Positions 3,964-14,668 are shown, numbered from the whole stretch's first letter. The stretch is DNA of 63,613 bases, filler included, from Candidatus Woesearchaeota archaeon (GCA_023266675.1; 4 parts of 4 records of this genome joined end to end with filler, not necessarily neighbours in it); one strand, 5' to 3'. Numbers and translations: made by a program. The notes: generated by a model not told the origin, from the letters alone.

Positions 3964-5754
3964 ATGGGTGAACAGACAGTTAATTTAAATAACTTTTCAG
4001 GTACTGATAAGACTGTAAGTAAAGGAGTAAGTAAAGAGGATAATGATAAGAAAGAAGTAAAGCCGATTGCTGCCAAAAACGACACTGTTTCAAAGGCTCA
4101 TGAGATGGCTAAAGGGCAGCGTGATATTTCTGTTGCCGAGTTTTTTGAGAAAAACAGGCATTTACTTGGGTTTGATAATAAGAGAAAAGCTCTTTTGACA
4201 ACTATTAAAGAAGCTGTTGATAACTCACTAGACGCATGCGAAGAAGCAGGAATATTACCTGAAGTTCATGTTGACATTGTTGATATGGGTAATGACAGGT
4301 TCATGATTAAAGTTGAGGATAATGGCCCTGGAATCGTAAAAAAACAGATTCCAAGCATTTTCGCAAAGCTTCTTTACGGCTCAAAGTTTCATTCATTAAA
4401 GCAGTCCAGAGGACAGCAGGGTATTGGTATCTCTGCAGCAGCGCTTTATGGACAGCTTACAACAGGTAAACCAATTAGAATACTTTCTAAGATTGGACCG
4501 ATGGAGCCTGCGCATTACATGGAGCTTCATATTGACACTTCAAAAAATAAGCCAGAGATAATAAAGGAAGAAGTCCGCGACTGGTATAAGGAGCACGGAA
4601 CAAAGCTAGAGCTTGATATTGAAGGAATCTATCAGAAGGGCGGTCAGTCTGTTGATGAGTATATGAAGCAGACAGCAATTGCTAACCCTCACGTGACACT
4701 TGTTTACACTAATCCTAAAGCTGAGCAGATAATTTTTCCAAGAGCAACTGATGAGCTTCCAAAAGAGGCAAAGAACATCAAACCTCACCCTTATGGAATT
4801 GAGCTTGGTATATTGATAAGAATGCTTGCGCAGACTGAAACAAAGACTCTCCAGCAGTTTTTAACAAGTGAATTCTCAAGGGTTTCGCCTAACAACGCAA
4901 AGCAAATATGTGAAGAGGCATCAGTTCTTCCGAATACATCTCCTTCAAAGGTTTCAAGAGAAATGGCTGAAAAGCTTATTGAGGGAATAAAGAAAACAAA
5001 GATTATAGCGCCGTCAACGGACTGCATCTCACCAATTGGCGCAGAACAACTTAAGAAGGGTCTTAAAAAAGAGATTAACGCAGAATTTTATACTGCTGTA
5101 ACACGTTCACCTGAAATTTATCGAGGAAACCCGTTTGTCATTGAAGCAGGAATCGCTTATGGCGGAGACCAAAAAGCTGATGGTTCAATCAATATTTACA
5201 GATATGCTAACAGAGTGCCATTATTATATCAGCAGGGAGCATGCGCTATCACTGATGCTATTCAATCAACCAACTGGAAGCCTTACGGACTTCAGCAATC
5301 AGGAAATTCAACACCACAGGGCCCAATGACTATAACTGTTCATATGGCGTCTGTCTGGGTGCCTTTTACCAGTGAAGCAAAGGAAGCTCTAGCTCATTAT
5401 CCTGAGATAATCAAAGAGATTAAACTAGCTATACAAGAATGCGGCCGAGACCTTGCAAGCTATGTGATGAAGAAAAGAAGAGTAAAAGATGAGTTTAAAA
5501 AACGAAGTTATATTGAAAAATATATCCCTCACGTTGGACAAGCTTTGCAGGAGATGCTAAAGCTTAGTGATATTGAAGAAAAGAGAGTTGAAGGAAACCT
5601 AAAAGAGCTTCTTGAAAAAAGCAGAGGAAAACTTGATGATGTTGACTTTGACCCAGACAAGAATGAAGAGTATGATGAAAATTTTGCTAATATAGGAAAA
5701 GAAGAAACAGAAAAAGAAAGCAATGAAGAAGAGAAAGAAAAGAGTGATGAATAA
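3964..5754 (+). CDS. top6B: DNA topoisomerase VI subunit B
   Basis: GHKL motifs EAVDNSLDA, DNGPGI, SRGQQGIG; RYANRVPLL. Confidence 0.97.
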   Translation: MGEQTVNLNNFSGTDKTVSKGVSKEDNDKKEVKPIAAKNDTVSKAHEMAKGQRDISVAEFFEKNRHLLGFDNKRKALLTTIKEAVDNSLDACEEAGILPEVHVDIVDMGNDRFMIKVEDNGPGIVKKQIPSIFAKLLYGSKFHSLKQSRGQQGIGISAAALYGQLTTGKPIRILSKIGPMEPAHYMELHIDTSKNKPEIIKEEVRDWYKEHGTKLELDIEGIYQKGGQSVDEYMKQTAIANPHVTLVYTNPKAEQIIFPRATDELPKEAKNIKPHPYGIELGILIRMLAQTETKTLQQFLTSEFSRVSPNNAKQICEEASVLPNTSPSKVSREMAEKLIEGIKKTKIIAPSTDCISPIGAEQLKKGLKKEINAEFYTAVTRSPEIYRGNPFVIEAGIAYGGDQKADGSINIYRYANRVPLLYQQGACAITDAIQSTNWKPYGLQQSGNSTPQGPMTITVHMASVWVPFTSEAKEALAHYPEIIKEIKLAIQECGRDLASYVMKKRRVKDEFKKRSYIEKYIPHVGQALQEMLKLSDIEEKRVEGNLKELLEKSRGKLDDVDFDPDKNEEYDENFANIGKEETEKESNEEEKEKSDE

Positions 5755-5756
5755 AG

Positions 5757-6878
5757 ATGCCTAAAGAGAAAGATAAGAAAGAGAAAATTATGATTGAAAA
5801 TGAAGTTACTGATAAAATAAGAAGTAAAGCCAGAGGAGTATTTGATGACATTATCTCTTTAAAGCTTCCTAAGATGGAAATCCCTATTCGAAGCCTTCAA
5901 AACGTTGAGTATAATGAAGACAAGGGACACTTTGTCCAGATGGGTAAGATGAAGGAACGAAATTTAACTGCATCAACAATCAAAACATTTGCGCAGACAC
6001 TTAGAATGATGAATCTTTCACGGGAAATCGTTGGAAACGATGACATCGCTACAAAGAGAGAAGCGTATTACGTCTCCAAGAACTGGGGAGAAGCAAGGTT
6101 TAACGAGCAGCCTGAATCTGACGCTGTTATGGATGATATTGAAGCTATGATGGAAGTTAACCGAGAGCAGATTGGTTTCATCCCTGAAGAGAAGGGAGGC
6201 GAGATTGCCGGCGAATTAATCATTGTTGACAGAGACCCTGAAACTAAAAAAGAGTTAAAGATTGACTGCACAAAGATGGGTTCAGGCGCTTACGCTGCAC
6301 CTAGCTCATGCGAACACTTAAAGTTTGAAACAAAAGCAGATTTTATTTTAGCAATAGAAACAGCAGGTATGTTTCAGCGACTAGTAAAACACAGATACTG
6401 GAAAAAAGCAAACTGCATATTAATCTCAATGGGAGGAGTCCCAACACGAGCTTGCAGAAGATTTATAAGACGCCTTAGTGACGAGAAGAAACTTCCTGTT
6501 TACGCATTCACAGATGGAGACTTTTACGGATTCATGAATATTTATAGGACTCTAAAAGTTGGTTCAGGAAACGCTTCGCATATTAATGAATTTTTTTGTG
6601 TTCCAGAAGCAAAGTTTATTGGCGTAACCCCTCAGGACATAATTGATTATAATCTTCCTACGCATCCGCTTAAAGAAGTTGACATTAAAAGAGGAAAAGA
6701 CGCAATTAAAAACGACCCTTTCGTTCATGCGCATAAAGAATGGCAAAAAGCAATTGAACTGCAATTAAAACTTGGCAAAAGGGCAGAGCAGCAGGCGTTC
6801 GCAGCTTATGACTTGAACTATGTTATGGATAAATATTTGCCTGATAAACTCAAAGACAGAAAGACATGGCTTCCTTAA
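5757..6878 (+). CDS. top6A: DNA topoisomerase VI subunit A
   Basis: Spo11-like TKREAYY, AIETAGMF, TDGD toprim motifs; follows top6B. Confidence 0.97.
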   Translation: MPKEKDKKEKIMIENEVTDKIRSKARGVFDDIISLKLPKMEIPIRSLQNVEYNEDKGHFVQMGKMKERNLTASTIKTFAQTLRMMNLSREIVGNDDIATKREAYYVSKNWGEARFNEQPESDAVMDDIEAMMEVNREQIGFIPEEKGGEIAGELIIVDRDPETKKELKIDCTKMGSGAYAAPSSCEHLKFETKADFILAIETAGMFQRLVKHRYWKKANCILISMGGVPTRACRRFIRRLSDEKKLPVYAFTDGDFYGFMNIYRTLKVGSGNASHINEFFCVPEAKFIGVTPQDIIDYNLPTHPLKEVDIKRGKDAIKNDPFVHAHKEWQKAIELQLKLGKRAEQQAFAAYDLNYVMDKYLPDKLKDRKTWLP

Positions 6879-7678
6879 TCTAGCGGACTTTTTATATTCT
6901 CAAATCTTCTTGTGTCCATATTTATGTATGCTTTTCTTGTTGTCTCAATATTTGAATGTCCTAAAAGCGCTGATATATCATGTAGAGGAACGCCGTTATT
7001 TAGAAGGTGAGTTGCGTAGCTTGCGCGAAGCATATGAGGATAAACATTTTTTTCTACACCTGCCTTTTTTGCTGCATTTATGATTATTAATTCTGCCGTC
7101 CTTATTGATATGTGTTTTCCTTTGTTATAGGATGATTCAAAGAGATAATCAGATACCTGATAATCTGAATAATCATTCAAAAACCTGTCTGAGAGTTTGA
7201 CAAACCTGTCTTTTTTTCCTTTTCCCTGCCGAATTATTGCTCCATTTTCTTTTTCTAAAATATCCTCTTTTCTTATCCTGACTGCTTCGCCGACTCGCAG
7301 GCCTGCAGAGTATATTAACTCAATCAAAAGCCGATGCTTAGAATTGGTAGTAACTTCAATCATCTTTATTATTTCTTCTCGCTTAAGTGTTTTTACGATC
7401 TTTTTTGGAAGACGCGATCGTGAAAAGTCTTTCATGATGTTTCTTTTCATTATTTTCCTGTAATATTTTGTAAGCGCGCTTATCGCAAGCCTTATTGTTG
7501 TTGGCTTTGCAGAATTCATATTAAGATGCAGAAGATATTTTCTCACATCTTCATTTGTCACCTGATGTGGCTTTTTTTTAGCAAACTCCAAGAATTTTTT
7601 GTTGTGATAAACATATGCATCAATTGATTTTTTACTGTCATTTTCTAAAATCATCTCTTCTCTTAACACTTCAAACAT
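6875..7678 (-). CDS. Tyrosine recombinase, integron-integrase-like
   Basis: Likely ATG 7678 after GGTGA RBS; SAM-like N-domain; catalytic R (GLRVGE), K (GKGKK), HMLR, LGH, Y; ends IKSPLD; adjoins a cassette array. Confidence 0.9.
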   Translation of the reverse strand: MFEVLREEMILENDSKKSIDAYVYHNKKFLEFAKKKPHQVTNEDVRKYLLHLNMNSAKPTTIRLAISALTKYYRKIMKRNIMKDFSRSRLPKKIVKTLKREEIIKMIEVTTNSKHRLLIELIYSAGLRVGEAVRIRKEDILEKENGAIIRQGKGKKDRFVKLSDRFLNDYSDYQVSDYLFESSYNKGKHISIRTAELIIINAAKKAGVEKNVYPHMLRASYATHLLNNGVPLHDISALLGHSNIETTRKAYINMDTRRFENIKSPLD

Positions 7679-7703
7679 TTTGTTTTCACCTTTTTTAAAT
7701 AGC

Positions 7704-7818
7704 GCTGCGGCCGGGATTTTCACCCAGGCAACAAGTATTGCGAGTAATTTGAACCCAGATACCCTTGTCGGGCAGTGGCGTATCAAACCACCGCGCTACC
7801 AGGTTACGCTACCGCAGC
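7704..7818 (-). tRNA. tRNA-like element (GAU/Ile anticodon) with 47-nt variable region
   Basis: Acceptor GCTGCGG/CCGCAGC, D-arm GCGT-AACCTGGTA-GCGC, anticodon arm GTGGT-TTGATAC-GCCAC, T-arm CTGGG-TGAAAAT-CCCGG; atypical T-loop and insert. Confidence 0.6.
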
Positions 7819-7904: not shown

Positions 7905-7942
7905 TGGCGTATCAAACCATTGCATTACCGGTTATGTTACCG
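7905..7942 (-). repeat. Degenerate copy of the 5' half of the tRNA-like element
   Basis: TGGCGTATCAAACCA identical at 7776-7790 and 7905-7919; similarity continues through the D-arm. Confidence 0.65.
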
Positions 7943-8194
7943 GCTTTTTCTTTTTTTAATTCTGAAGAATCCATTTATATATCTCACGCGAGCATGTCCA
8001 GTGTCCAGTGAAGCACTTTGTCGTCGATAACTAGCTGTCCAGTGGATTAACATTTCTTCTGTTCTTATTCATTTTAGCCTCAAATTTCAAAGACTTTTGC
8101 AAAAAGCGTTCATTGTTTGTTCTGATTGAGAATCATAAACCAACATGAGCCCTTTGCAAAGTATGAGTTATAGAAAAAATTTGAGGTTATAAAA

Positions 8195-8413
8195 ATGAAT
8201 AAAGAAAAGATAAAAGGATTAATATCAATGTATGACATGTTATTTGACGACTATTCAAGGCAGATGCTTTGGGTATGCAATAAAGAGTTCTCACAAAGAA
8301 AAAAACGCGCTATATCGGCAGATATCACAGTAAGAATGTTCTTTAAGCTTCTCTATGCACACACCTACCTTATGGAAGAGGCGGAAGAAACAAAAACCCC
8401 AAAAGAAGTTTAG
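8195..8413 (+). CDS. Hypothetical 72-aa protein
   Basis: GAGGT RBS and ATG; no recognisable family. Confidence 0.5.
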   Translation: MNKEKIKGLISMYDMLFDDYSRQMLWVCNKEFSQRKKRAISADITVRMFFKLLYAHTYLMEEAEETKTPKEV

Positions 8414-8485
8414 GGCAGTTTTTATTTATAAAACTTGCGCACGCAGTAATTCACGACAAACATCAAAAACCTTCGTCTAATAGAT

Positions 8486-8492
8486 GTTAAGT
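8486..8492 (+). other. First crossover core site GTTAAGT (attI-like or half attC)
   Basis: Preceded by CTTCG...GA-TGTT like the right arms of downstream sites, but no matching left arm seen. Confidence 0.55.
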
Positions 8493-8513
8493 TCAATATT
8501 ACTCGGGGGCGAT

Positions 8514-8762
8514 TTAGAATTCACCACGAAATGTTGGTCCATGACATTTGGGGCATTTTACATCTCTATGTATATCTGCAGCGATGTTACAAAAAGGACA
8601 ATATCTTCCATCATCTTTTGTTAAATCTCCCAAAGATTCTCTAAGTTCTGATAACTTTGCGCAATCTTCTAATATCTGTTCTTTTGTACGATTTTTATCT
8701 CCAACATTTATTACCTCAAACCATGTAACACCATATGCAACGATTTCGTTTTGATTATTCAT
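8514..8762 (-). CDS. Cassette 1 gene: small Zn-ribbon protein
   Basis: CPFC...CPKC; TTTATATA box upstream. Confidence 0.75.
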   Translation of the reverse strand: MNNQNEIVAYGVTWFEVINVGDKNRTKEQILEDCAKLSELRESLGDLTKDDGRYCPFCNIAADIHRDVKCPKCHGPTFRGEF

Positions 8763-8870
8763 GAATTATAGAATGATTAAATATTATATAAAAAGATTAC
8801 TATTCTGCCCCCTGCGTCATACTCTGCGTCGCCTTCGGCTCCTTGTCTCGCCCACTTTGTAGGCTCAAGA

Positions 8871-8990
8871 ATATAACACGAATTTAGCGGTTCACTTCGG
8901 CTCGCCACTTTGAAGCTTCGCCTCCGTTCTCCCAAATCCTTTAATGTTGCTTCGCAACTTAAATGACATCGCTAAATTCGTATGTTTCTC
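8871..8990 (+). repeat. attC-like site 1
   Basis: AACA-CGAATTTAGCG ... CGCTAAATTCG-TA-TGTT; CCCAAAT at 8931. Confidence 0.8.
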
Positions 8991-9268
8991 AAAATTTTTC
9001 GTCTCCTTTACAGCTTCGCAAAAATTATTTTATTCCGCCACCTTCGTTAAATCTACCGACGAGAAGACAAACTAAGAAATTCCTTGCACTTCTTATAACA
9101 ATGATTTAACGGCTCGCTACGCTCAACCTAAATTTTTTCTTATCAACACGGAAATCAGGGGTAAACTTAATAAAGTACTATTTTTGAACATAACCTTTAT
9201 ATACCAGTATTACATTCCCATAATAAGGGAATAGTGGAGTACTATACCTTATACAAATTATAAGCAAG

Positions 9269-10033
9269 GTGAATGATATGGATGGCTCTGTAATGCTCAA
9301 CAAACTGGATGAATTTATGTCTACACAGGTTAGAAAGGATGTGCTTAAATGTTATGTTATAAAAGATTCTTCCCAATCAGATGTAGTCACCTGCCTAGAT
9401 AAAATGAAACCCCAATATGGTTCAACTTCTACTGTAGATAGAATTACTTCCAGCTTAAATTATATAGGTATAATTGACAAAGAAGATATAAAAGAAAATA
9501 AGCAATATTACCGCGTTAATTGGCATATTTGGATACAAGAAACATTAAAATCACTTGGATTAAAAAATGTTTCTGAAGAAAAGGTTGCAGAGATTGAGAA
9601 ATTAGTTTCAGACAAAAAAATGATTGCCTTCTATTTTGCATTAACTTCTGAAGACGTATTAAAAACTATATGGCAGGAAAAACTGGATAAGGTTACCCTT
9701 AAAGAGCTTAAAAAAGAAGGGATACAACCGGAGATATTTTTGAATTATATGATTAAACAGGGACCTGGCATCAGTCACTTACCATTTTTCTTCATTTTAT
9801 CAGGGAATCCAATGGCAAAATTATGGGCTAAGGATATGAAAGATACCAAAAAAACTAAAGAAAAATCGTTTATTAAAGCTTTAAATGATGCTATTTTGAA
9901 AGATCCTGCAAAAGAAGTCCTTGAAAAATTCGATGACAAAGTCCTGAAAGAGATAATTGATAATATGAGAAAAATAGAGGAGGCAACAAAAAAACTATTT
10001 ATTGAACAGCTAAAAGAACAAATGAAATCATAA
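9269..10033 (+). CDS. Cassette 2 gene: hypothetical protein, possible N-terminal winged helix
   Basis: Long ORF; TVDRITSSLNYIGII...YYRVN resembles wHTH. Confidence 0.65.
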   Translation: MNDMDGSVMLNKLDEFMSTQVRKDVLKCYVIKDSSQSDVVTCLDKMKPQYGSTSTVDRITSSLNYIGIIDKEDIKENKQYYRVNWHIWIQETLKSLGLKNVSEEKVAEIEKLVSDKKMIAFYFALTSEDVLKTIWQEKLDKVTLKELKKEGIQPEIFLNYMIKQGPGISHLPFFFILSGNPMAKLWAKDMKDTKKTKEKSFIKALNDAILKDPAKEVLEKFDDKVLKEIIDNMRKIEEATKKLFIEQLKEQMKS

Positions 10034-10159
10034 TTAAGTACTTAGCACGGAACAATTCCCATAAGAAGAACTGCCCCGCGTAAGCGTGTTACAACTTTTC
10101 TTTTTATTAGGGAGTATTTAAACTTTTTTGTTCTGCGCTAGTAACTTTAAAAAAATAAG

Positions 10160-10747
10160 GTGAAAGCAATGGAAAAACAAAAAATACAAGAAGTATTTTC
10201 CGAGCAGATAAAGCCGCAACTCGGAAGGATACATAAAGAAGAAAAATATCTGAATATAGTGTGGCAGTTAGCTGAAAATGCTTCAGCTAATGATGGAAAA
10301 GGATTGAGAGAAGCGCAACTCACAGATGAAGTAAAACCTGCGTCACAAGCTTTGAATCGGCTTGCAGATAAAGGATTTGTTGAAATTACTCTTCCTGTTG
10401 GAAACGGAACCTTACTTATTGACCCTATAAACAATAAAAGAGAACTTTTCAAAAAGCAGGAGATGATTGAAAGATATTTTACGAAGTTTAGACTGCATCT
10501 CGATAGTAGTCAAGAAGTACAACAAATAGCTATGGAAGTGCTACATCTTAATTCCGAACGCGAATTAAACCGATGGGCAGAGTCACTTGAAGAGCAAGAT
10601 AACTTTGAGCGATATAACCTTGTCGTTTTCAAATTACTTGAAAGAGGAATTGAAGTCGGAAAGCAATTTTATGGTCCAATGCACTGGCGGAAGATGAGTA
10701 AATTTTACAACATTTCTGAAAAGACAAAAACAATTCTTGAGGGATGA
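10160..10747 (+). CDS. Cassette 2 gene: hypothetical protein, possible winged helix
   Basis: SQALNRLADKGFVEI. Confidence 0.65.
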   Translation: MKAMEKQKIQEVFSEQIKPQLGRIHKEEKYLNIVWQLAENASANDGKGLREAQLTDEVKPASQALNRLADKGFVEITLPVGNGTLLIDPINNKRELFKKQEMIERYFTKFRLHLDSSQEVQQIAMEVLHLNSERELNRWAESLEEQDNFERYNLVVFKLLERGIEVGKQFYGPMHWRKMSKFYNISEKTKTILEG

Positions 10748-10938
10748 ACATGACAAAATTTATCTCACGAAGAAATACAAATGTCGATTTTAGCTTTATT
10801 GCAAAAAATCCTGCAACAATCTTAATTGCAGGAGGCGTTCTTTTTTTGTTGATTGGCAAAGAATTATGGGGAGTATTACTCATTATATTAGGAGTAGTGC
10901 TTCACTTAATATGGTTAAAAGGAAAAGGGAGGATATAA
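10744..10938 (+). CDS. Cassette 2 gene: small 2-TM membrane protein
   Basis: Hydrophobic hairpin; ATGA overlap with upstream gene. Confidence 0.65.
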   Translation: MNMTKFISRRNTNVDFSFIAKNPATILIAGGVLFLLIGKELWGVLLIILGVVLHLIWLKGKGRI

Positions 10939-10939
10939 A

Positions 10940-11263
10940 ATGTTAAGCCTAATAGACACATGGATAAAAGCGACGGTTGAACATAGAATACTGAATATTG
11001 AGTATTTTAGCCACACAAAACAAGAGTATACTAAAAGAGATATTGAACCTGATTTTATAGGACCTTCCAGAGATGGAAGAAATAATGGAATATGGGCTAC
11101 ATTTTGTCATCTAAGAAACGAAGGCCCAAGATGTTTTCAACCACATTCTGTAAAGCATTTTTCCATTACTGAAAAAAGCTTTTCTCCTTCACCATTAGGA
11201 AGATGGAAAGAACTGTTGCCATTGTATGAACAAAAAGGACTTAAAGAAAAAGAGTTTGGGTGA
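10940..11263 (+). CDS. Cassette 2 gene: stand-alone WYL-domain protein
   Basis: LNIEY...TKRDIEP...ATFCHLRNEGPRCF matches the WYL pattern. Confidence 0.7.
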   Translation: MLSLIDTWIKATVEHRILNIEYFSHTKQEYTKRDIEPDFIGPSRDGRNNGIWATFCHLRNEGPRCFQPHSVKHFSITEKSFSPSPLGRWKELLPLYEQKGLKEKEFG

Positions 11264-11269
11264 ATTAAA

Positions 11270-11974
11270 ATGAAACTCAAACCCCTCTTTTTATGCTTCT
11301 TGTTAATGAGCACAGTATTGTTTAGTGCATGTACACAACAACAAATTACAGATACAACTGGACAAGTAATTGCATCCGGAAAGAAAATGCTTGATGACAC
11401 CAAGAATTTCGTGTCTAACGAAAGTGCAAGAGATGAAACAAAGATAAGTATGGCTAGTGGAATTGCCGAGTTTGCGACTAACTCCAATATAAAAAAAATA
11501 GAAAAAATTGAAACTTATCAACAATATATTGCAATGGCAGATAACTTAAATTTCGTAATTGATGTTATCAATAAAAAAACAGATGCGAACATAAAACAAA
11601 TATCCAAAGGAGTAGAGGACTGGAACAAATTTAATATGGAAGCTACGCGTTACGCACCTCTTTTTGAAAACTATAATAGTTTAGTGGACAGTTGTTACGC
11701 ATTTGATAAAAACAATGAAAAATCTGCTAACCTAGTATTAATAAAGTCAAGCAGCTTTACTGCAGAAGCGTTATTAATTTTAGGAACTGCATTTTATAAA
11801 ACTGCATTTTTTGCCACAGGGAAAATTGCTGAAGCCACAGGGATAACAAAACTGGCATCCGTATGTGATTCCTGTGTATCTTCAGCTATGAGTGCAGGCC
11901 ATTGGACTATACGTAATGGAATGATTGAAAAAACCACTGAATTTGCTGAAAATATTACATTAGCAAATACTTGA
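11270..11974 (+). CDS. Cassette 2 gene: lipoprotein
   Basis: Signal peptide with FSAC lipobox. Confidence 0.7.
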   Translation: MKLKPLFLCFLLMSTVLFSACTQQQITDTTGQVIASGKKMLDDTKNFVSNESARDETKISMASGIAEFATNSNIKKIEKIETYQQYIAMADNLNFVIDVINKKTDANIKQISKGVEDWNKFNMEATRYAPLFENYNSLVDSCYAFDKNNEKSANLVLIKSSSFTAEALLILGTAFYKTAFFATGKIAEATGITKLASVCDSCVSSAMSAGHWTIRNGMIEKTTEFAENITLANT

Positions 11975-12111
11975 ATTATTATAACTACCCCTGATTTCCT
12001 ATACAATGCTTCGCATGATATTTTTTATGGTTGATAAGAAAAAACTACGGCGGCGGAATAATTTTTGGAGACGAAAAACTCAAGCCCTCGCCACTTACGT
12101 AGCTTCGGGTC

Positions 12112-12250
12112 GAGAAACAAGCGTTAAGCGGTTCGTTTCGCTTGTCCACTTCGTAGCCTTCGCTTCACTCACCCAAATTTGATTTCAACTCTGAATTGCG
12201 GTGTACCTCAATTCGAGGAAATCAAACTTCGCTTAACGCTGATGTTAAAT
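12112..12250 (+). repeat. attC-like site 2
   Basis: AACA-AGCGTTAAGCG ... CGCTTAACGCT-GA-TGTT; CCCAAAT at 12172. Confidence 0.85.
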
Positions 12251-12266
12251 ACAATAAATGCATTTC

Positions 12267-12599
12267 CTATTTACGTGGCTTGGCAACATCAAAAGATCCC
12301 ATAATCTGCTCACGAGTTTTTTCCCATGTCCCATATTTTCTGAGAATTAGATGTGCACATTCTTTTGTAAATATAATATATGCATAAATATCTGATTTTA
12401 CAAATCCGTCTGGGGAATCACTCGAATCAATCACTAAATAATAGTCCATTAAATCGTTATATTTATGGAATTTACGACCAGAATCTTCAAGTGCAAAAAT
12501 TCGGTATAGCTCATTAGCAGTCTGGATTTCAGCTTTAAATTTAAACCAAATAGAATCTTCACTAGAACTAATTCCTTTAATCAATGGTTTTGATGTCAT
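12267..12599 (-). CDS. Cassette 3 gene: hypothetical protein
   Basis: 110-aa ORF filling the cassette. Confidence 0.7.
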   Translation of the reverse strand: MTSKPLIKGISSSEDSIWFKFKAEIQTANELYRIFALEDSGRKFHKYNDLMDYYLVIDSSDSPDGFVKSDIYAYIIFTKECAHLILRKYGTWEKTREQIMGSFDVAKPRK

Positions 12600-12719
12600 A
12601 ATAAGCCAAGTAAATGTTTTAATTTATGTATTTTACGGAAATGCATTTACTTCTCCGCTCCTCGACTGCGGTCTGTGGTGCTCGACCACGTTGCACTCTC
12701 AGCCTGCGGGCTTCGGGGT

Positions 12720-12830
12720 ATTTAACAGCGATTACACGGCTCACTCCTTGCAGTCGTTCGACCCAAATTCCTCGCCTATCTTATAACTGAAATTTTGTGC
12801 GAGGAACTTCGTGTAATCGCGATGTTATGT
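12720..12830 (+). repeat. attC-like site 3
   Basis: AACA-GCGATTACACG ... CGTGTAATCGC-GA-TGTT; CCCAAAT at 12762. Confidence 0.85.
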
Positions 12831-12899
12831 GCAATATTACTCAGGGACAAATAAAATAATTTAGTAAACCTTTTATAGAAACTAATCTAAGTATAGATA

Positions 12900-13322
12900 A
12901 TGGAGAAGACAATCATGGGAATATTTTCTGATGGATGGTGGATATTCTCTCAAGGATTAGATGGATTGATTTATTTTTGGTATGTAACATTAATATTAGT
13001 TCTCATGCTTTGTCTTTCAATTTATTTGATGTATAGAAAAAAAATAAAATTTCCTAAAAAGAGATTATACTTTTTGTTATATCCACTTTTTTTACCAGTT
13101 ATCATTTCTTTATTAGGTTCGATATTTTATGATACTCAATATGCTGGTATTGGGTATTTACCTGTTTTTTTATTTTTTTCAGATTTTATTTATTCAGCTA
13201 TTCTAATATACAAATTCAAGGATTATAGATTATTTCTATTTTCATTTTTTGGTTTACTTATTTGGTTAACTTTCTGGGTTCTTTTTGTTGCTGGAATGTC
13301 AATTGCTAATGATTGGATGTAA
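12900..13322 (+). CDS. Cassette 4 gene: 4-TM membrane protein
   Basis: Hydrophobic ORF ending GMSIANDWM. Confidence 0.75.
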   Translation: MEKTIMGIFSDGWWIFSQGLDGLIYFWYVTLILVLMLCLSIYLMYRKKIKFPKKRLYFLLYPLFLPVIISLLGSIFYDTQYAGIGYLPVFLFFSDFIYSAILIYKFKDYRLFLFSFFGLLIWLTFWVLFVAGMSIANDWM

Positions 13323-13376
13323 TTTTATTTGTCCCTTGCGTCATACTACCCTCGCTCACGTTGTAAGCTTCGGTGC

Positions 13377-13517
13377 ACATAACAGCGATTAACTGGTTCG
13401 GCACTTCGTGGTTCCCACTCTAAAGGTCTCCGCCCACGAAATGCCTCTCCCAAATTGCGAACACTATTTGATAACTAAACTTTTGGTTCGCAACTCCAGT
13501 TAATCGCGTTGTTATAC
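13377..13517 (+). repeat. attC-like site 4 (end of array)
   Basis: AACA-GCGATTAACTGG ... CCAGTTAATCGC-GT-TGTT; CCCAAAT at 13449. Confidence 0.85.
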
Positions 13518-13585: not shown

Positions 13586-14668
13586 ATGAAGATTTATCAG
13601 AAAGTTGATATGAATAAGATTAAGCGTCATCATCTTGAAGTTCTTAAGAGTTTGCAGTACAAAAGCGGTTTATTCGCAGCGTCAAAGAAAAGCGTATCAA
13701 CCGGCTACGATAAAGCGTGGCTTAGAGACAACTTCTATGAGTGCCTGGCGTTTGAGACAGTTGGTGATTATGACACTGTGAAAAAGACTTATAGGGCGAT
13801 TCTTGACATTTTTTTAAAGCATGAGGAAAAGATTGACTGGGCGATTAAGCAAAAGCCTGATGCTGATTGGAAATACATCCACCCGAGGTATAATCCGGAC
13901 ACTTTTGAGGAATTCTGGGAAGAGTGGGGTTTTAAGCAGCATGACTGCATCGGCGCAATTCTTTTTAAGATAGGTGAGCTTGAAGTTGACAGGAAGATAA
14001 AGATATTAAAAAATGAGAAAGATTACAGGATTGTGCAAAAATTAGTTGATTATCTTTCAAGCATTGAATACTGGCACGACCCAGACTCAGGGATGTGGGA
14101 GGAGAACCAGGAAATACACGCGTCATCAGTTGGCGCCTGTGTTGCAGGACTTCAAAAGGTTTCACAGATAAGAAAGATAAATGTGAATCCTGAACTTGTC
14201 GTTAAAGGTTTTGGTGTTTTGTTAAACATTCTTCCAAGAGAGTCTGAGAAGAAATTTGTTGACTTGGCATTATTGTCACTTATTTATCCTTATGATATTG
14301 TCAACAAAGAGCAGAGAAATGATATTTTAAAAAACGTTGAATACCACCTTGAGAAGAACATGGGAGTTATAAGGTATAAGAATGACCATTATTACAATAA
14401 AAATCCTGACGGGCATTCTGAGGAAGCTGAGTGGACAATGGGTCTGTCATGGCTTGCAATAATCTATGAAAAGCTTGGAAAACAGAATATGGCCAAACAC
14501 TACATTGAAAAGACATTAAATACAATAACTGACACTGGTGAAATCCCTGAGATCTATTATTCAAACACGAAAAAACCAAACCCAAACACTCCGCTTGGAT
14601 GGGCTGAAAGCCTTTTCATAGTTGCTTTGCACAAGTTCCAAAATGAGTTTTCTGAAAAAGTGAAATAA
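13586..14668 (+). CDS. Glycoside hydrolase family 15 protein (glucoamylase-like)
   Basis: AWLRD, DSGMWEE, GVIRY, PLGWA motifs. Confidence 0.85.
   Translation: MKIYQKVDMNKIKRHHLEVLKSLQYKSGLFAASKKSVSTGYDKAWLRDNFYECLAFETVGDYDTVKKTYRAILDIFLKHEEKIDWAIKQKPDADWKYIHPRYNPDTFEEFWEEWGFKQHDCIGAILFKIGELEVDRKIKILKNEKDYRIVQKLVDYLSSIEYWHDPDSGMWEENQEIHASSVGACVAGLQKVSQIRKINVNPELVVKGFGVLLNILPRESEKKFVDLALLSLIYPYDIVNKEQRNDILKNVEYHLEKNMGVIRYKNDHYYNKNPDGHSEEAEWTMGLSWLAIIYEKLGKQNMAKHYIEKTLNTITDTGEIPEIYYSNTKKPNPNTPLGWAESLFIVALHKFQNEFSEKVK

Follow-up and report, generated by a model that had tools for sequence, protein, structure and literature searches.

In this study, we analysed a stretch of 63,613 nt from a Candidatus Woesearchaeota archaeon (GCA_023266675.1; parts of four records joined with filler, here called the window), in which four attC-like hairpins stand in tandem with a gene for an XerA-family tyrosine recombinase adjoining them (Table 1). 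The best reading of the window is a chromosomal integron-like cassette array of this small-genome archaeon that is served by the XerA-family recombinase. Cassettes of this kind carry inverted repeats near their two ends, here called arms, and we show the anatomy of the cassettes, the cognate pairing of the arms and their conservation by position, though not by sequence, across 15 genomes. An integron cassette is defined by its attC hairpin, which extends as far as the R boxes, and both the origin of cassettes and the choice of single cassettes for excision are open questions for integrons. A cassette layout with private end arms and an additional module, as it appears here from sequence, was not found in the searched literature.

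Table 1. Array features and neighbouring genes, numbered from the first nucleotide of the window (^ marks the crossover)
Feature	Position	Strand	Details
XerA-family tyrosine recombinase	6875..7702	-	Pfam Phage_integrase and SAM-like N domain; adjoins the array
tRNA gene, 116 nt	7703..7818	-	Rfam RF00005, 44.9 bits; between recombinase and array
attI-like first junction ...CTTCGTCTAATAGATG^TTAAGT	8470..8492	+	crossover G at 8486; without complementary left half
Cassette 1	8487..8984	+	ORF 8514-8762 on minus strand; decayed arms 8505-8510 / 8807-8812
attC-like hairpin 1	8871..8990	+	R'' ATATAAC ... G^TTTCTC; fold; covariance model R2, 72.7 bits
Cassette 2, 3260 nt	8985..12244	+	five co-oriented ORFs
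Cassette 2 left arm blocks	8995-9006, 9030-9039, 9133-9147, 9150-9163	+	
Cassette 2 right arm blocks	11986-11999, 12030-12044, 12052-12061, 12067-12078	+	
Cassette 2 module, 33 nt	12079..12111	+	between right arm and R''
attC-like hairpin 2	12112..12250	+	fold; covariance model R2, 36.5 bits
Cassette 3	12245..12824	+	ORF 12267-12599 on minus strand; arms 12255-12267 / 12637-12649
Cassette 3 module, 70 nt	12650..12719	+	holds CCACGTTGCACTCTC
attC-like hairpin 3	12720..12830	+	fold; covariance model R2, 61.6 bits
Cassette 4	12825..13511	+	ORF 12900-13322; arms 12843-12857 / 13322-13336
Cassette 4 module, 40 nt	13337..13376	+	
attC-like hairpin 4, last of the array	13377..13517	+	fold; covariance model R2
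Chromosomal GH15-like gene	at 13586		after last attC-like hairpin

The array and its recombinase

The recombinase aligns end to end with P. abyssi XerA (PDB 4a8e), while its match to IntI4 (2a3v) ends at residue 173. It scores 185.6 bits against the NCBIfam model XerA_Arch (cut-off 220) and matches the IntI model TIGR02249 (cut-off 265) in two pieces, at model positions 3-172 and 233-313, with 100.9 and 53.3 bits. The protein has 16 residues where TIGR02249 has 60, and is thus without the IntI-specific domain near patch III; IntI1 needs 314 codons to cover recombinase query residues 8-275. In a plasmid protein search XerA-like genes ranked top, with IntI1 and IntI2 records only among the spread rows of matches. 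The array is not a classical integron; its recombinase is XerA-like and has no IntI-specific domain. The recombinase gene is the sole XerA-like gene found in its genome (95.9% completeness), and it adjoins such arrays in the window and in nine fetched loci. In a tree with a midpoint root only, the window copy forms a clade with copies that are linked to arrays or lie at contig ends, the non-array paralogues of other genomes being placed outside it, and where genomes have two paralogues the array-linked copy is in a separate clade. The open frame extends to 7786, but overlaps the tRNA gene, whose length could hold an intron; ARAGORN called no tRNA in the window despite the Rfam match, and Rfam at gathering thresholds gave nothing but this tRNA there. 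A small ORF (8195-8413) was considered as an accessory factor and rejected, as it is not conserved in related loci. When the genome, which has about 34% G+C, was scanned for hairpins, only the four sites of the array were recovered, the rest being unrelated matches.

The attC-like fold, R''-L''...L'-R' with AAC/GTT, is found at the four window sites on both strands, with gaps of 3.1, 0.5 and 0.5 kb between them, and covariance model R2 matches 45 sites (20 loci and the window). Sites were aligned by covariance models because MAFFT misaligned their 3' arms. In the L helix, the sequence of which varies from site to site, Watson-Crick pairs fill 454 of 484 cells and wobble-type pairs 15, and such a near lack of wobble pairs fits DNA rather than RNA pairing. 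The R and L helices are separated by a bulge on the R' arm, which has 2 nt in 30 of 44 sites and otherwise 3 nt. The crossover is G^TT: in 18 of 24 consecutive pairs, cassettes 2-4 included, the first 7-mer of the cassette is the complement of its own R'' (GTTTCTC and GAGAAAC in cassette 2), and in cassette 1 the R box equals its own R'' at 5/7 positions. The attI-like junction and the junction at 12821 have GATGTTA..CAATATTACTC in common. A conserved structured module of 33-92 nt separates the right arm from R''. RNAalifold gave no consensus owing to misalignment, after which 11 modules were folded singly; ten of them take one P1(P2)+P3 shape with differing stem sequences, and in eight of the 11 the folding z is at or below -2. 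At one module-less site (locus L023) the arm nearly abuts the R box. As the crossover is internal to a long composite stem, the first ~25 nt of a cassette (TTNNNN, nCAA and left arm) partner its own R'' and right arm.

Cognate arms at the cassette ends

The preliminary description had reported that each cassette is enclosed by long, segmented and cassette-specific inverted repeats. All five coordinate pairs are exact reverse complements, the pair of cassette 4 being placed as in Table 1, and the repeats are present in cassettes 2, 3 and 4, but only in a decayed version in cassette 1. Segmentation is confined to cassette 2 and absent from cassettes 3 and 4; the arm sequence is indeed private to each cassette, but the register of the arms is fixed and their flanks are common. 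The innermost arm lies near the stop codon, as had been noticed, overlapping it by 1 nt in cassette 4 and lying 11 nt past it in cassette 2; the ORF of cassette 3 is on the minus strand, and its stop shares 1 nt with the left arm. Within the left arm of cassette 2, an attC-like remnant (9040-9132) forms a side hairpin.

For each cassette, the 200 nt after TTNNNN were compared with the 200 nt before its own R'' and with 1000 dinucleotide shuffles, a control called for by the preliminary description, which the repeats of cassettes 2-4 passed: their longest match was reached in 0, 1 and 1 of the 1000 shuffles. The longest match of cassette 2 is 15 nt and its nested chain 51 nt in four blocks, neither value occurring in any shuffle; cassette 3 has a longest match of 13 and a chain of 22 (4/1000), and cassette 4 a longest match of 15 and a chain of 23 (7/1000). 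The longest match of cassette 1 (9 nt, off position) was equalled in 159 of 1000 shuffles and is not above chance, and at the expected place there are only GGGGGC/GCCCCC (8505-8510 / 8807-8812) and ATTCT/AGAAT. Twelve non-cognate pairs in the window gave matches of 9 nt at most.

The same property is present in homologous arrays, for which 15 genomes of the same order supplied 31 cassettes. When the R-box rule alone fixed the cassette starts, 26 of these had exact cognate repeats, inverted and 10-16 nt long, and in 24 of the 31 the arms measured at least 12 nt. Cassette 1 has no exact arm of 10 nt, nor do five of the 31 in all, and a long perfect arm is hence not obligatory. Among consecutive attC pairs (n=24), cognate arms of at least 12 nt were found in 13 and of at least 15 nt in nine; the corresponding numbers for non-cognate pairs (n=1956) are 11 and 0, with 94 at 10 nt or more. 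A cassette start pairs with its own end and not with that of its neighbour, as pairs at the same attC reach at least 10 nt in only 1 of 45 cases; first cassettes at the attI-like site also bear arms. The arm begins exactly 4 nt past TTNNNN in 18 of the 31 cassettes, its flanks are constant (nCAA left, CTCT right) and its ends are sharp, the next six positions being Watson-Crick in only 34 of 152 instances. In locus L014 an ORF-less cassette contains a local hairpin with a stem of ~45 bp; that this cassette is wholly palindromic was rejected, the palindrome being the local hairpin only.

No relatives of the cassette 4 protein were found in 400 other genomes of the order, and none of the cassette 3 protein or the first cassette 2 protein in metagenome contigs. 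Orthologous cassettes suitable for a test of compensatory changes were likewise not found among the 400 genomes, the metagenome contigs and the fetched arrays, which gave only two cargo matches, both weak. In Logan contigs from one study, joints from circles or deletions, other letters and indels were all absent, at a depth (~6x) that is uninformative on circles, deletions and flips.

When junctions were circularised in silico, cognate ends gave a mean of -51.1 kcal/mol against -39.4 kcal/mol with a non-cognate start (~11.7 better), these energies being equilibrium predictions that exclude proteins. The mean for the junction fold in array context was -36.6 kcal/mol, and in 27 of the 31 cassettes the cognate energy lay below that of all 30 non-cognates. 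For the whole single-stranded cassettes 3 and 4, the predicted pairing probability of the arms is 0.94-0.98 on either strand. The idea that the arms extend the attC stem was thus partly supported, in that circularised junctions are predicted to fold better with cognate ends; the predicted structure is however a branched junction and not a continuous stem, since the module has helices of its own.

A proposed composite site and alternative explanations

The explanation that we favour, and to which we give about an even chance, is that the arms form the outer helix of a folded single-stranded recombination site, which would be complete only in the excised circle or in a single strand of the whole cassette. 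The site would be a composite fold rather than a bare attC hairpin, consisting from the inside out of a variable tip, an L helix of ~11-12 bp, the 2-nt bulge and an R helix of 7-9 bp holding G^TT, outside which a junction (nCAA on the 3' side, the structured 33-92-nt module on the 5' side) would lead to an outer helix of 10-16 bp. Upon integration, the 3' strands of the R helix and the outer helix would end up at the opposite end of the cassette, which would explain why a cassette begins with the complement of its own end. The arms would pair as single-stranded DNA, and selection would keep this pairing, as in the L and R helices with their site-to-site sequence differences. In the excised circle the complete fold might fix the register of the site for insertion. 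Another possibility is that the whole cassette folds as a single strand, which might bring the two flanking hairpins together so that exactly that cassette is excised. The arms cannot form beside an attC in the array, and a role in excision would need a single strand of 0.5-4 kb. Copying at cassette birth would be expected to give perfect, sharp-ended arms as well. That the recombination cycle itself writes the private arms, with one arm copied or repaired from the other in the single-stranded circle or a gene captured between the halves of the outer helix, seems to us unlikely.

It also seems rather improbable that the arms are just an inverted duplication of 12-16 nt, left when a module-attC unit and a gene were united, whether through insertion into the middle of a palindrome, fold-back copying or the like, and without a later role. 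Perfect arms with sharp ends and narrow lengths (12-16 nt in 24/31 cassettes) would suit such an origin, as would the ORFan nature of the cargo genes and the placement of the arms exactly between conserved scaffold and cargo, where one arm abuts the stop codon in either cargo orientation. However, perfect hairpins with a stem of at least 10 are rare (63 in 1.22 Mb), so ordinary genes would be without such ready targets, and pre-existing terminator hairpins were rejected as the source of the arms on the same grounds. Moreover, the L and R helices are also private yet paired, and are functional in attC; the arms are exact but unrelated in two toxin-antitoxin cassettes whose cargoes are homologous (50% identity over 64 aa); and a mechanism for inverted duplication at both cargo ends was not found in the searched literature. 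A switch that inverts the cargo across the arms relative to the attC scaffold would be compatible with an outer helix, and we consider it quite improbable. The cargo is randomly oriented (31 forward against 22 reverse ORFs; 9/9 for single-ORF cassettes) and a promoter-to-stop unit lies between the arms, mirrored in the two orientation classes, but a promoter of its own in each cassette explains random orientation equally well. In the fetched arrays no homologous cassette pair with opposite cargo was found, the ~6x contigs, at a depth uninformative on flips, showed no strand-changing joints, and for homologous inversion 12-16 bp is a short repeat.

We think it very improbable that the arms act at the RNA level, pairing in a cassette-spanning transcript for processing, stability or insulation. 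Archaeal rRNA precursors do have long flanking stems, and the apparent AT-rich promoter region of each cassette adjoins an arm; yet the arms are present regardless of coding strand, are perfect and unbulged with no bulge-helix-bulge motif by eye, and show no preference for T-runs over A-runs, while the site helices are nearly without G.U-type pairs. A reading of the arms as oligo-T terminators was rejected, A-runs being as frequent as T-runs. That AT-rich DNA gave rise to the matches by chance, or that they are an artefact of assembly, has next to no probability. The genome has ~34% G+C and the best match of cassette 1 is at chance level, but this reading is refuted by the shuffles (0-1 of 1000 match cassettes 2-4), by the absence of 15-nt matches among the 1956 non-cognate pairs and by the recurrence of the layout in 15 independently assembled genomes.

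With the arms as an outer helix, a concrete hypothesis is at hand, namely that the site is complete only in the excised state or upon pairing of the cassette ends. The system would pair a simpler, Xer-like recombinase with sites whose stem goes ~25 nt past the crossover and which carry an extra structured module, and private arms in a fixed register may serve as a signature of true cassette boundaries in archaeal MAGs. If the arms were written by the recombination cycle, they would amount to a record from which the making and renewal of cassettes could be read, in an Xer-type system that may resemble the ancestor of integrons; the origin of cassettes could then be tested with defined DNA and a simple recombinase.

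Comparison with known recombination systems

The array resembles the classical integron in its tandem arrangement, its divergently placed tyrosine recombinase, its imperfect AAC...GTT hairpins and its G^TT crossover, with the first 6 nt of a cassette matching its own R''. It differs in that the recombinase is without the IntI-specific domain, that the site continues beyond the R box with a structured module and an outer helix and that the cargo faces either way, as counted above. The bulge may also differ, being on the R' arm here, whereas one classical site has by eye an extra base on the other arm. In four classical cassettes inspected by eye (blaIMP-1, aac(6')-Ib4, aac(6')-Il and dfrA14), the stop is 1-10 nt away from R'', pairing extends past the R box by 0-5 nt and neither a module nor separate arms are present. 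Classical attC sites are described, in the portion of the source consulted, as recognized by structure and not by sequence (PMC5371416).

Ghaly et al. (2022) report attC clusters in archaeal MAGs including Nanoarchaeota, with cargo mostly of unknown function and toxin-antitoxin cassettes, in all of which their archaeal integrons and CALINs, as described in the parts consulted, are like the arrays studied here (PMC9668308). Their archaeal IntIs however have the IntI-specific domain and their cassettes are 'generally in the same orientation', whereas the recombinase here is without this domain and both orientations occur; the main text, in the parts consulted and without the supplements, mentions no cassette-flanking repeats, module or XerA-type recombinases (PMC9668308). 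The sites found here by fold and covariance model have the spacing (at least two attC less than 4 kb apart) that is one part of the CALIN definition in that work, the other being detection by the standard attC model.

Like TIR transposons and MITEs, the cassettes have inverted repeats that bracket the cargo, but here the arms differ from cassette to cassette and lie inside the recombination junctions, and are not common to a family. The CTX system is that of a phage genome using a host dif site and not a cassette array, and we know of no private outer helix in it. It nevertheless sets a precedent for recombination at a hairpin by an enzyme that has no IntI domain: in IMEX, according to the sections consulted, a folded single-stranded site and double-stranded DNA exchange one strand pair through an Xer-type recombinase, with replication thought to complete the integration (PMC3442271). 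The recombinase here is collinear with P. abyssi XerA of the XerA/dif system, and PaXerA, as the consulted part of a review has it, also binds stem-loops of unrelated att sites (PMC8371274). A dif site is double-stranded, with two inverted arms and a central spacer, and in its folded form the R-bulge-L stem might act as a mimic of it. The system is a candidate intermediate between Xer/dif and IntI/attC.

Inverted repeats at the cassette ends

In this analysis, we revisited the cassette-specific inverted repeats, or arms, which a preliminary description had reported as enclosing each cassette. Every repeat listed there is exact, and in cassettes 2, 3 and 4 the repeats exceed those found when 200-nt flanks are compared with 1000 dinucleotide shuffles. 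In cassette 2 the longest match is 15 nt and four nested blocks total 51 nt, neither of which was equalled in any of the 1000 shuffles, and in cassettes 3 and 4 (longest matches 13 and 15 nt) a match as long was seen in 1 of 1000 shuffles each. Non-cognate pairs within the window, that is the start of one cassette and the end of another, reach at most 9 nt. Neither shuffled nor non-cognate sequences thus produce such matches at a similar rate, and that the arms are a product of chance is hardly credible. However, the claim does not hold for cassette 1, whose best match is at chance level (159 of 1000 shuffles) and which has at the expected place only the remnants GGGGGC/GCCCCC and ATTCT/AGAAT.

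The repeats were also found in homologous arrays. A covariance model made from the sites gave matches in 21 of the 61 genomes searched, the window's own included and the relatives all belonging to the same order; 20 stretches were fetched, and 45 sites were located in all. In L014, a locus from the same family, a cognate repeat of 9-21 nt was identified by eye in 8/8 cassettes (at least 10 nt in 7/8), and a multi-gene cassette of 3.9 kb again has nested repeat blocks. The 80 nt after TTNNNN were then compared with the 160 nt before R'' in cognate pairs, in non-cognate pairs and in pairs flanking the same attC.

Pairs of flanks with inverted repeats of at least the given length
Pairs	n	>=10 nt	>=12 nt	>=15 nt
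Consecutive (cognate)	24	15	13	9
Non-cognate	1956	94	11	0
Same attC (array context)	45	1		

When only the R-box rule, which is blind to the arms, was used to assign cassette starts, 32 rows were obtained, one of which was dropped for a reused start, leaving 31 cassettes from 15 genomes. Among these, 26 have an exact arm of at least 10 nt and 24 one of at least 12 nt, and in 18 the arm starts exactly 4 nt past TTNNNN. Arms are also present in first cassettes, which are bordered on the left by the attI-like site next to the recombinase; this indicates that the left arm travels with the cassette.

Anatomy and predicted folding of the sites

According to the folding predictions, each site in the window forms on either strand an R helix (..AACA / TGTT..), a 2-nt bulge and an L helix of approximately 12 bp whose tip is variable. 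The bulge lies on the R' arm and, among 44 sites in 15 genomes, measures 2 nt in 30 (and in four weaker alignments) and 3 nt in five, and 454 of 484 cells of the L helix are Watson-Crick, yet its sequence varies from site to site. In 18 of the 24 pairs of consecutive sites, window cassettes 2, 3 and 4 among them, the first 7 nt of a cassette (G/TTNNNN, the slash marking the crossover) are the complement of its own R''; in cassette 1 the R box and R'' agree at only 5/7 positions. Such a match is the expected sequence signature of circularisation and re-insertion by crossover at G/TT, as in integrons. In L014 some attC sites (minus strand, approximately 1545-1520, 735-710 and 140-115) are collapsed to AACAGCGATGTT or similar, which looks like a deletion between the GCGAT repeats of both arms or an assembly collapse; the adjoining cassettes keep their arms.

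The cassette ends have a fixed order. At the left end TTNNNN is followed by nCAA (or nCAATATTACTC) and the arm, and at the right end the arm is followed by CTCT..., a structured module of 33-92 nt and R''. Apart from the module, the right end repeats the first ~25 nt of the cassette in reverse complement, and at a module-less site in the fetched locus L023 the arm almost touches the R box. On the cargo side the arm edges are sharp, with 34/152 complementary in the six positions beyond, about the chance level. Ten of the 11 modules examined are predicted to share one shape, in which helix P1 surrounds hairpin P2 and a conserved stretch that is unpaired (CGTTGCACT or CCACTTGCAG) and is followed by hairpin P3; the stems differ in sequence among copies, with z <= -2 in 8/11. 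The leaders of both large multi-gene cassettes (window 9040-9132; L014 ~8830-8690, minus strand) hold an attC-like remnant, consisting of an L'-like piece and then R''-L''-CCnAAAT, which folds as a side hairpin between arm blocks.

Folding of in-silico circularised junctions favoured the cognate start, with a mean of -51.1 kcal/mol as compared with -39.4 for the starts of other cassettes and -36.6 for the sequence that follows in the array, these values being equilibrium predictions for naked DNA. In 27 of 31 cassettes the cognate junction had a lower energy than each of its 30 alternatives. When cassettes 3 and 4 were folded as whole attC-cassette-attC stretches (752 and 868 nt), the arms were present in the minimum-energy structure, with a mean pair probability of 0.94-0.98 on either strand. 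The arms had been thought to lengthen the attC stem into one long stem; because the module is structured, the predicted fold of a circularised junction is instead branched, with an outer helix, P1, P3 and the attC stem.

The locus and its recombinase

The array lies on a single contig (window positions 1-20465) of an archaeal MAG of 1.22 Mb in 83 contigs; positions 20466-63613 are off this contig. A hairpin scan of this genome detected no site of the attC-like kind beyond the array's four.

Features of the array and its surroundings (window positions)
Feature	Position	Strand	Remark
Topoisomerase VI subunits B and A	3964-6878		
Tyrosine recombinase	6875-7702	minus	
tRNA	7703-7818		116 nt
Small ORF	8195-8413		unconserved
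First junction	8486		...GATG/TTAAGT; position of the crossover G; attI-like site 8470-8492
attC-like hairpins (four)	8871-8990, 12112-12250, 12720-12830, 13377-13517		
GH15-like gene	13586-14668		3' of last attC; array boundary

A GH15-like homologue also follows the last attC in L026, an array of another family, and its presence next to both arrays suggests a conserved chromosomal position for the array. The tRNA abuts the start of the recombinase, is missed by ARAGORN and has a length that allows an intron; its 5' half recurs in decayed form at a distance of 90 nt (7907-7945). Between recombinase and array, TGTCCAGTG occurs three times (7995, 8002 and 8036); it is found 38 times, in clusters, throughout the 1.22-Mb genome and also adjoins the recombinase in same-clade relatives (L001, L002, L004, L006, L013 and L014). 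It is probably the binding site of a regulator. At least nine copies of a palindrome, GGACTATTTC-loop-GAAATAGTCC, are spread over different contigs of the window's own genome (G000 contigs C8, C33, C44, C47, C52, C58, C76 and C83).

The recombinase is scored best by the archaeal XerA model, albeit under the cut-off of that model, and can be aligned with P. abyssi XerA over its full length. The IntI model matches it only on the flanks of the IntI-specific region, where 16 residues face 60 model positions, and 314 codons of IntI1 span 268 aligned recombinase residues. No second XerA-like gene was found in the window's own genome (95.9% complete), and genomes of its family have one each. A tree of 23 homologues, rooted at the midpoint only, has two well-supported array-linked groups. 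One (100/99) consists of eight array-linked copies from other families, and the other (100/100) of the window's copy, the array-linked L014 copy, a copy with a weak attC match, four contig-end copies and one without an attC match nearby. Most non-array XerA paralogues of the same genomes fall outside both.

Possible role of the arms and comparison with known systems

From the anatomy described here and its conservation, which are observations, we infer a function. In the simplest account, crossover would take place inside a long composite stem, of which the arms would form the outer helix, with pairing kept and sequence free as in the L and R helices. That this helix functions as single-stranded DNA, either within the circle after excision or by spanning a cassette in single-stranded form, has in our view about an even chance of being correct. 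The arms might instead be the footprint of cassette birth, which we consider unlikely.

Within the scope of the searches, the cargo genes are ORFans, and their orientation is random, with 31 forward and 22 reverse ORFs in the 31 cassettes from 15 genomes (9/9 in single-ORF cassettes), whereas co-orientation has been described for integrons. In both orientation classes one arm is abutted by a stop codon and the other by an AT-rich leader of ~40-70 nt. A flipping switch would be compatible with the outer-helix reading, but we regard it as less probable still than a footprint of birth, and an action of the arms at the RNA level as quite improbable.

A literature search on flanking inverted repeats, cassette origin and XerA with attC yielded nothing relevant. 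Archaeal attC arrays together with IntIs that contain the IntI domain have been described (Ghaly et al. 2022, PMC9668308), and in the available portion of that paper nothing is said of flanking repeats, a module or enzymes of the XerA type; arrays of the present kind are likewise absent from the accessible text of a review of archaeal tyrosine recombinases (PMC8371274). In the canonical attC anatomy, as set out in the part of Loot et al. 2017 (PMC5371416) available to us, pairing within the array is not required of the four variable bp of R'. In a small control of four classical cassettes from class 1 and class 2 integrons, inspected by eye, 1-10 nt separate the stop codon from R'', pairing extends 0-5 nt past the 7-bp R box, and there is neither a module nor separate arms, which sets these cassettes apart from the archaeal ones. 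For a recombinase that lacks the IntI domain and acts on a hairpin, a precedent is known in Xer enzymes, which act on folded single-stranded phage DNA according to the available text of PMC3442271.
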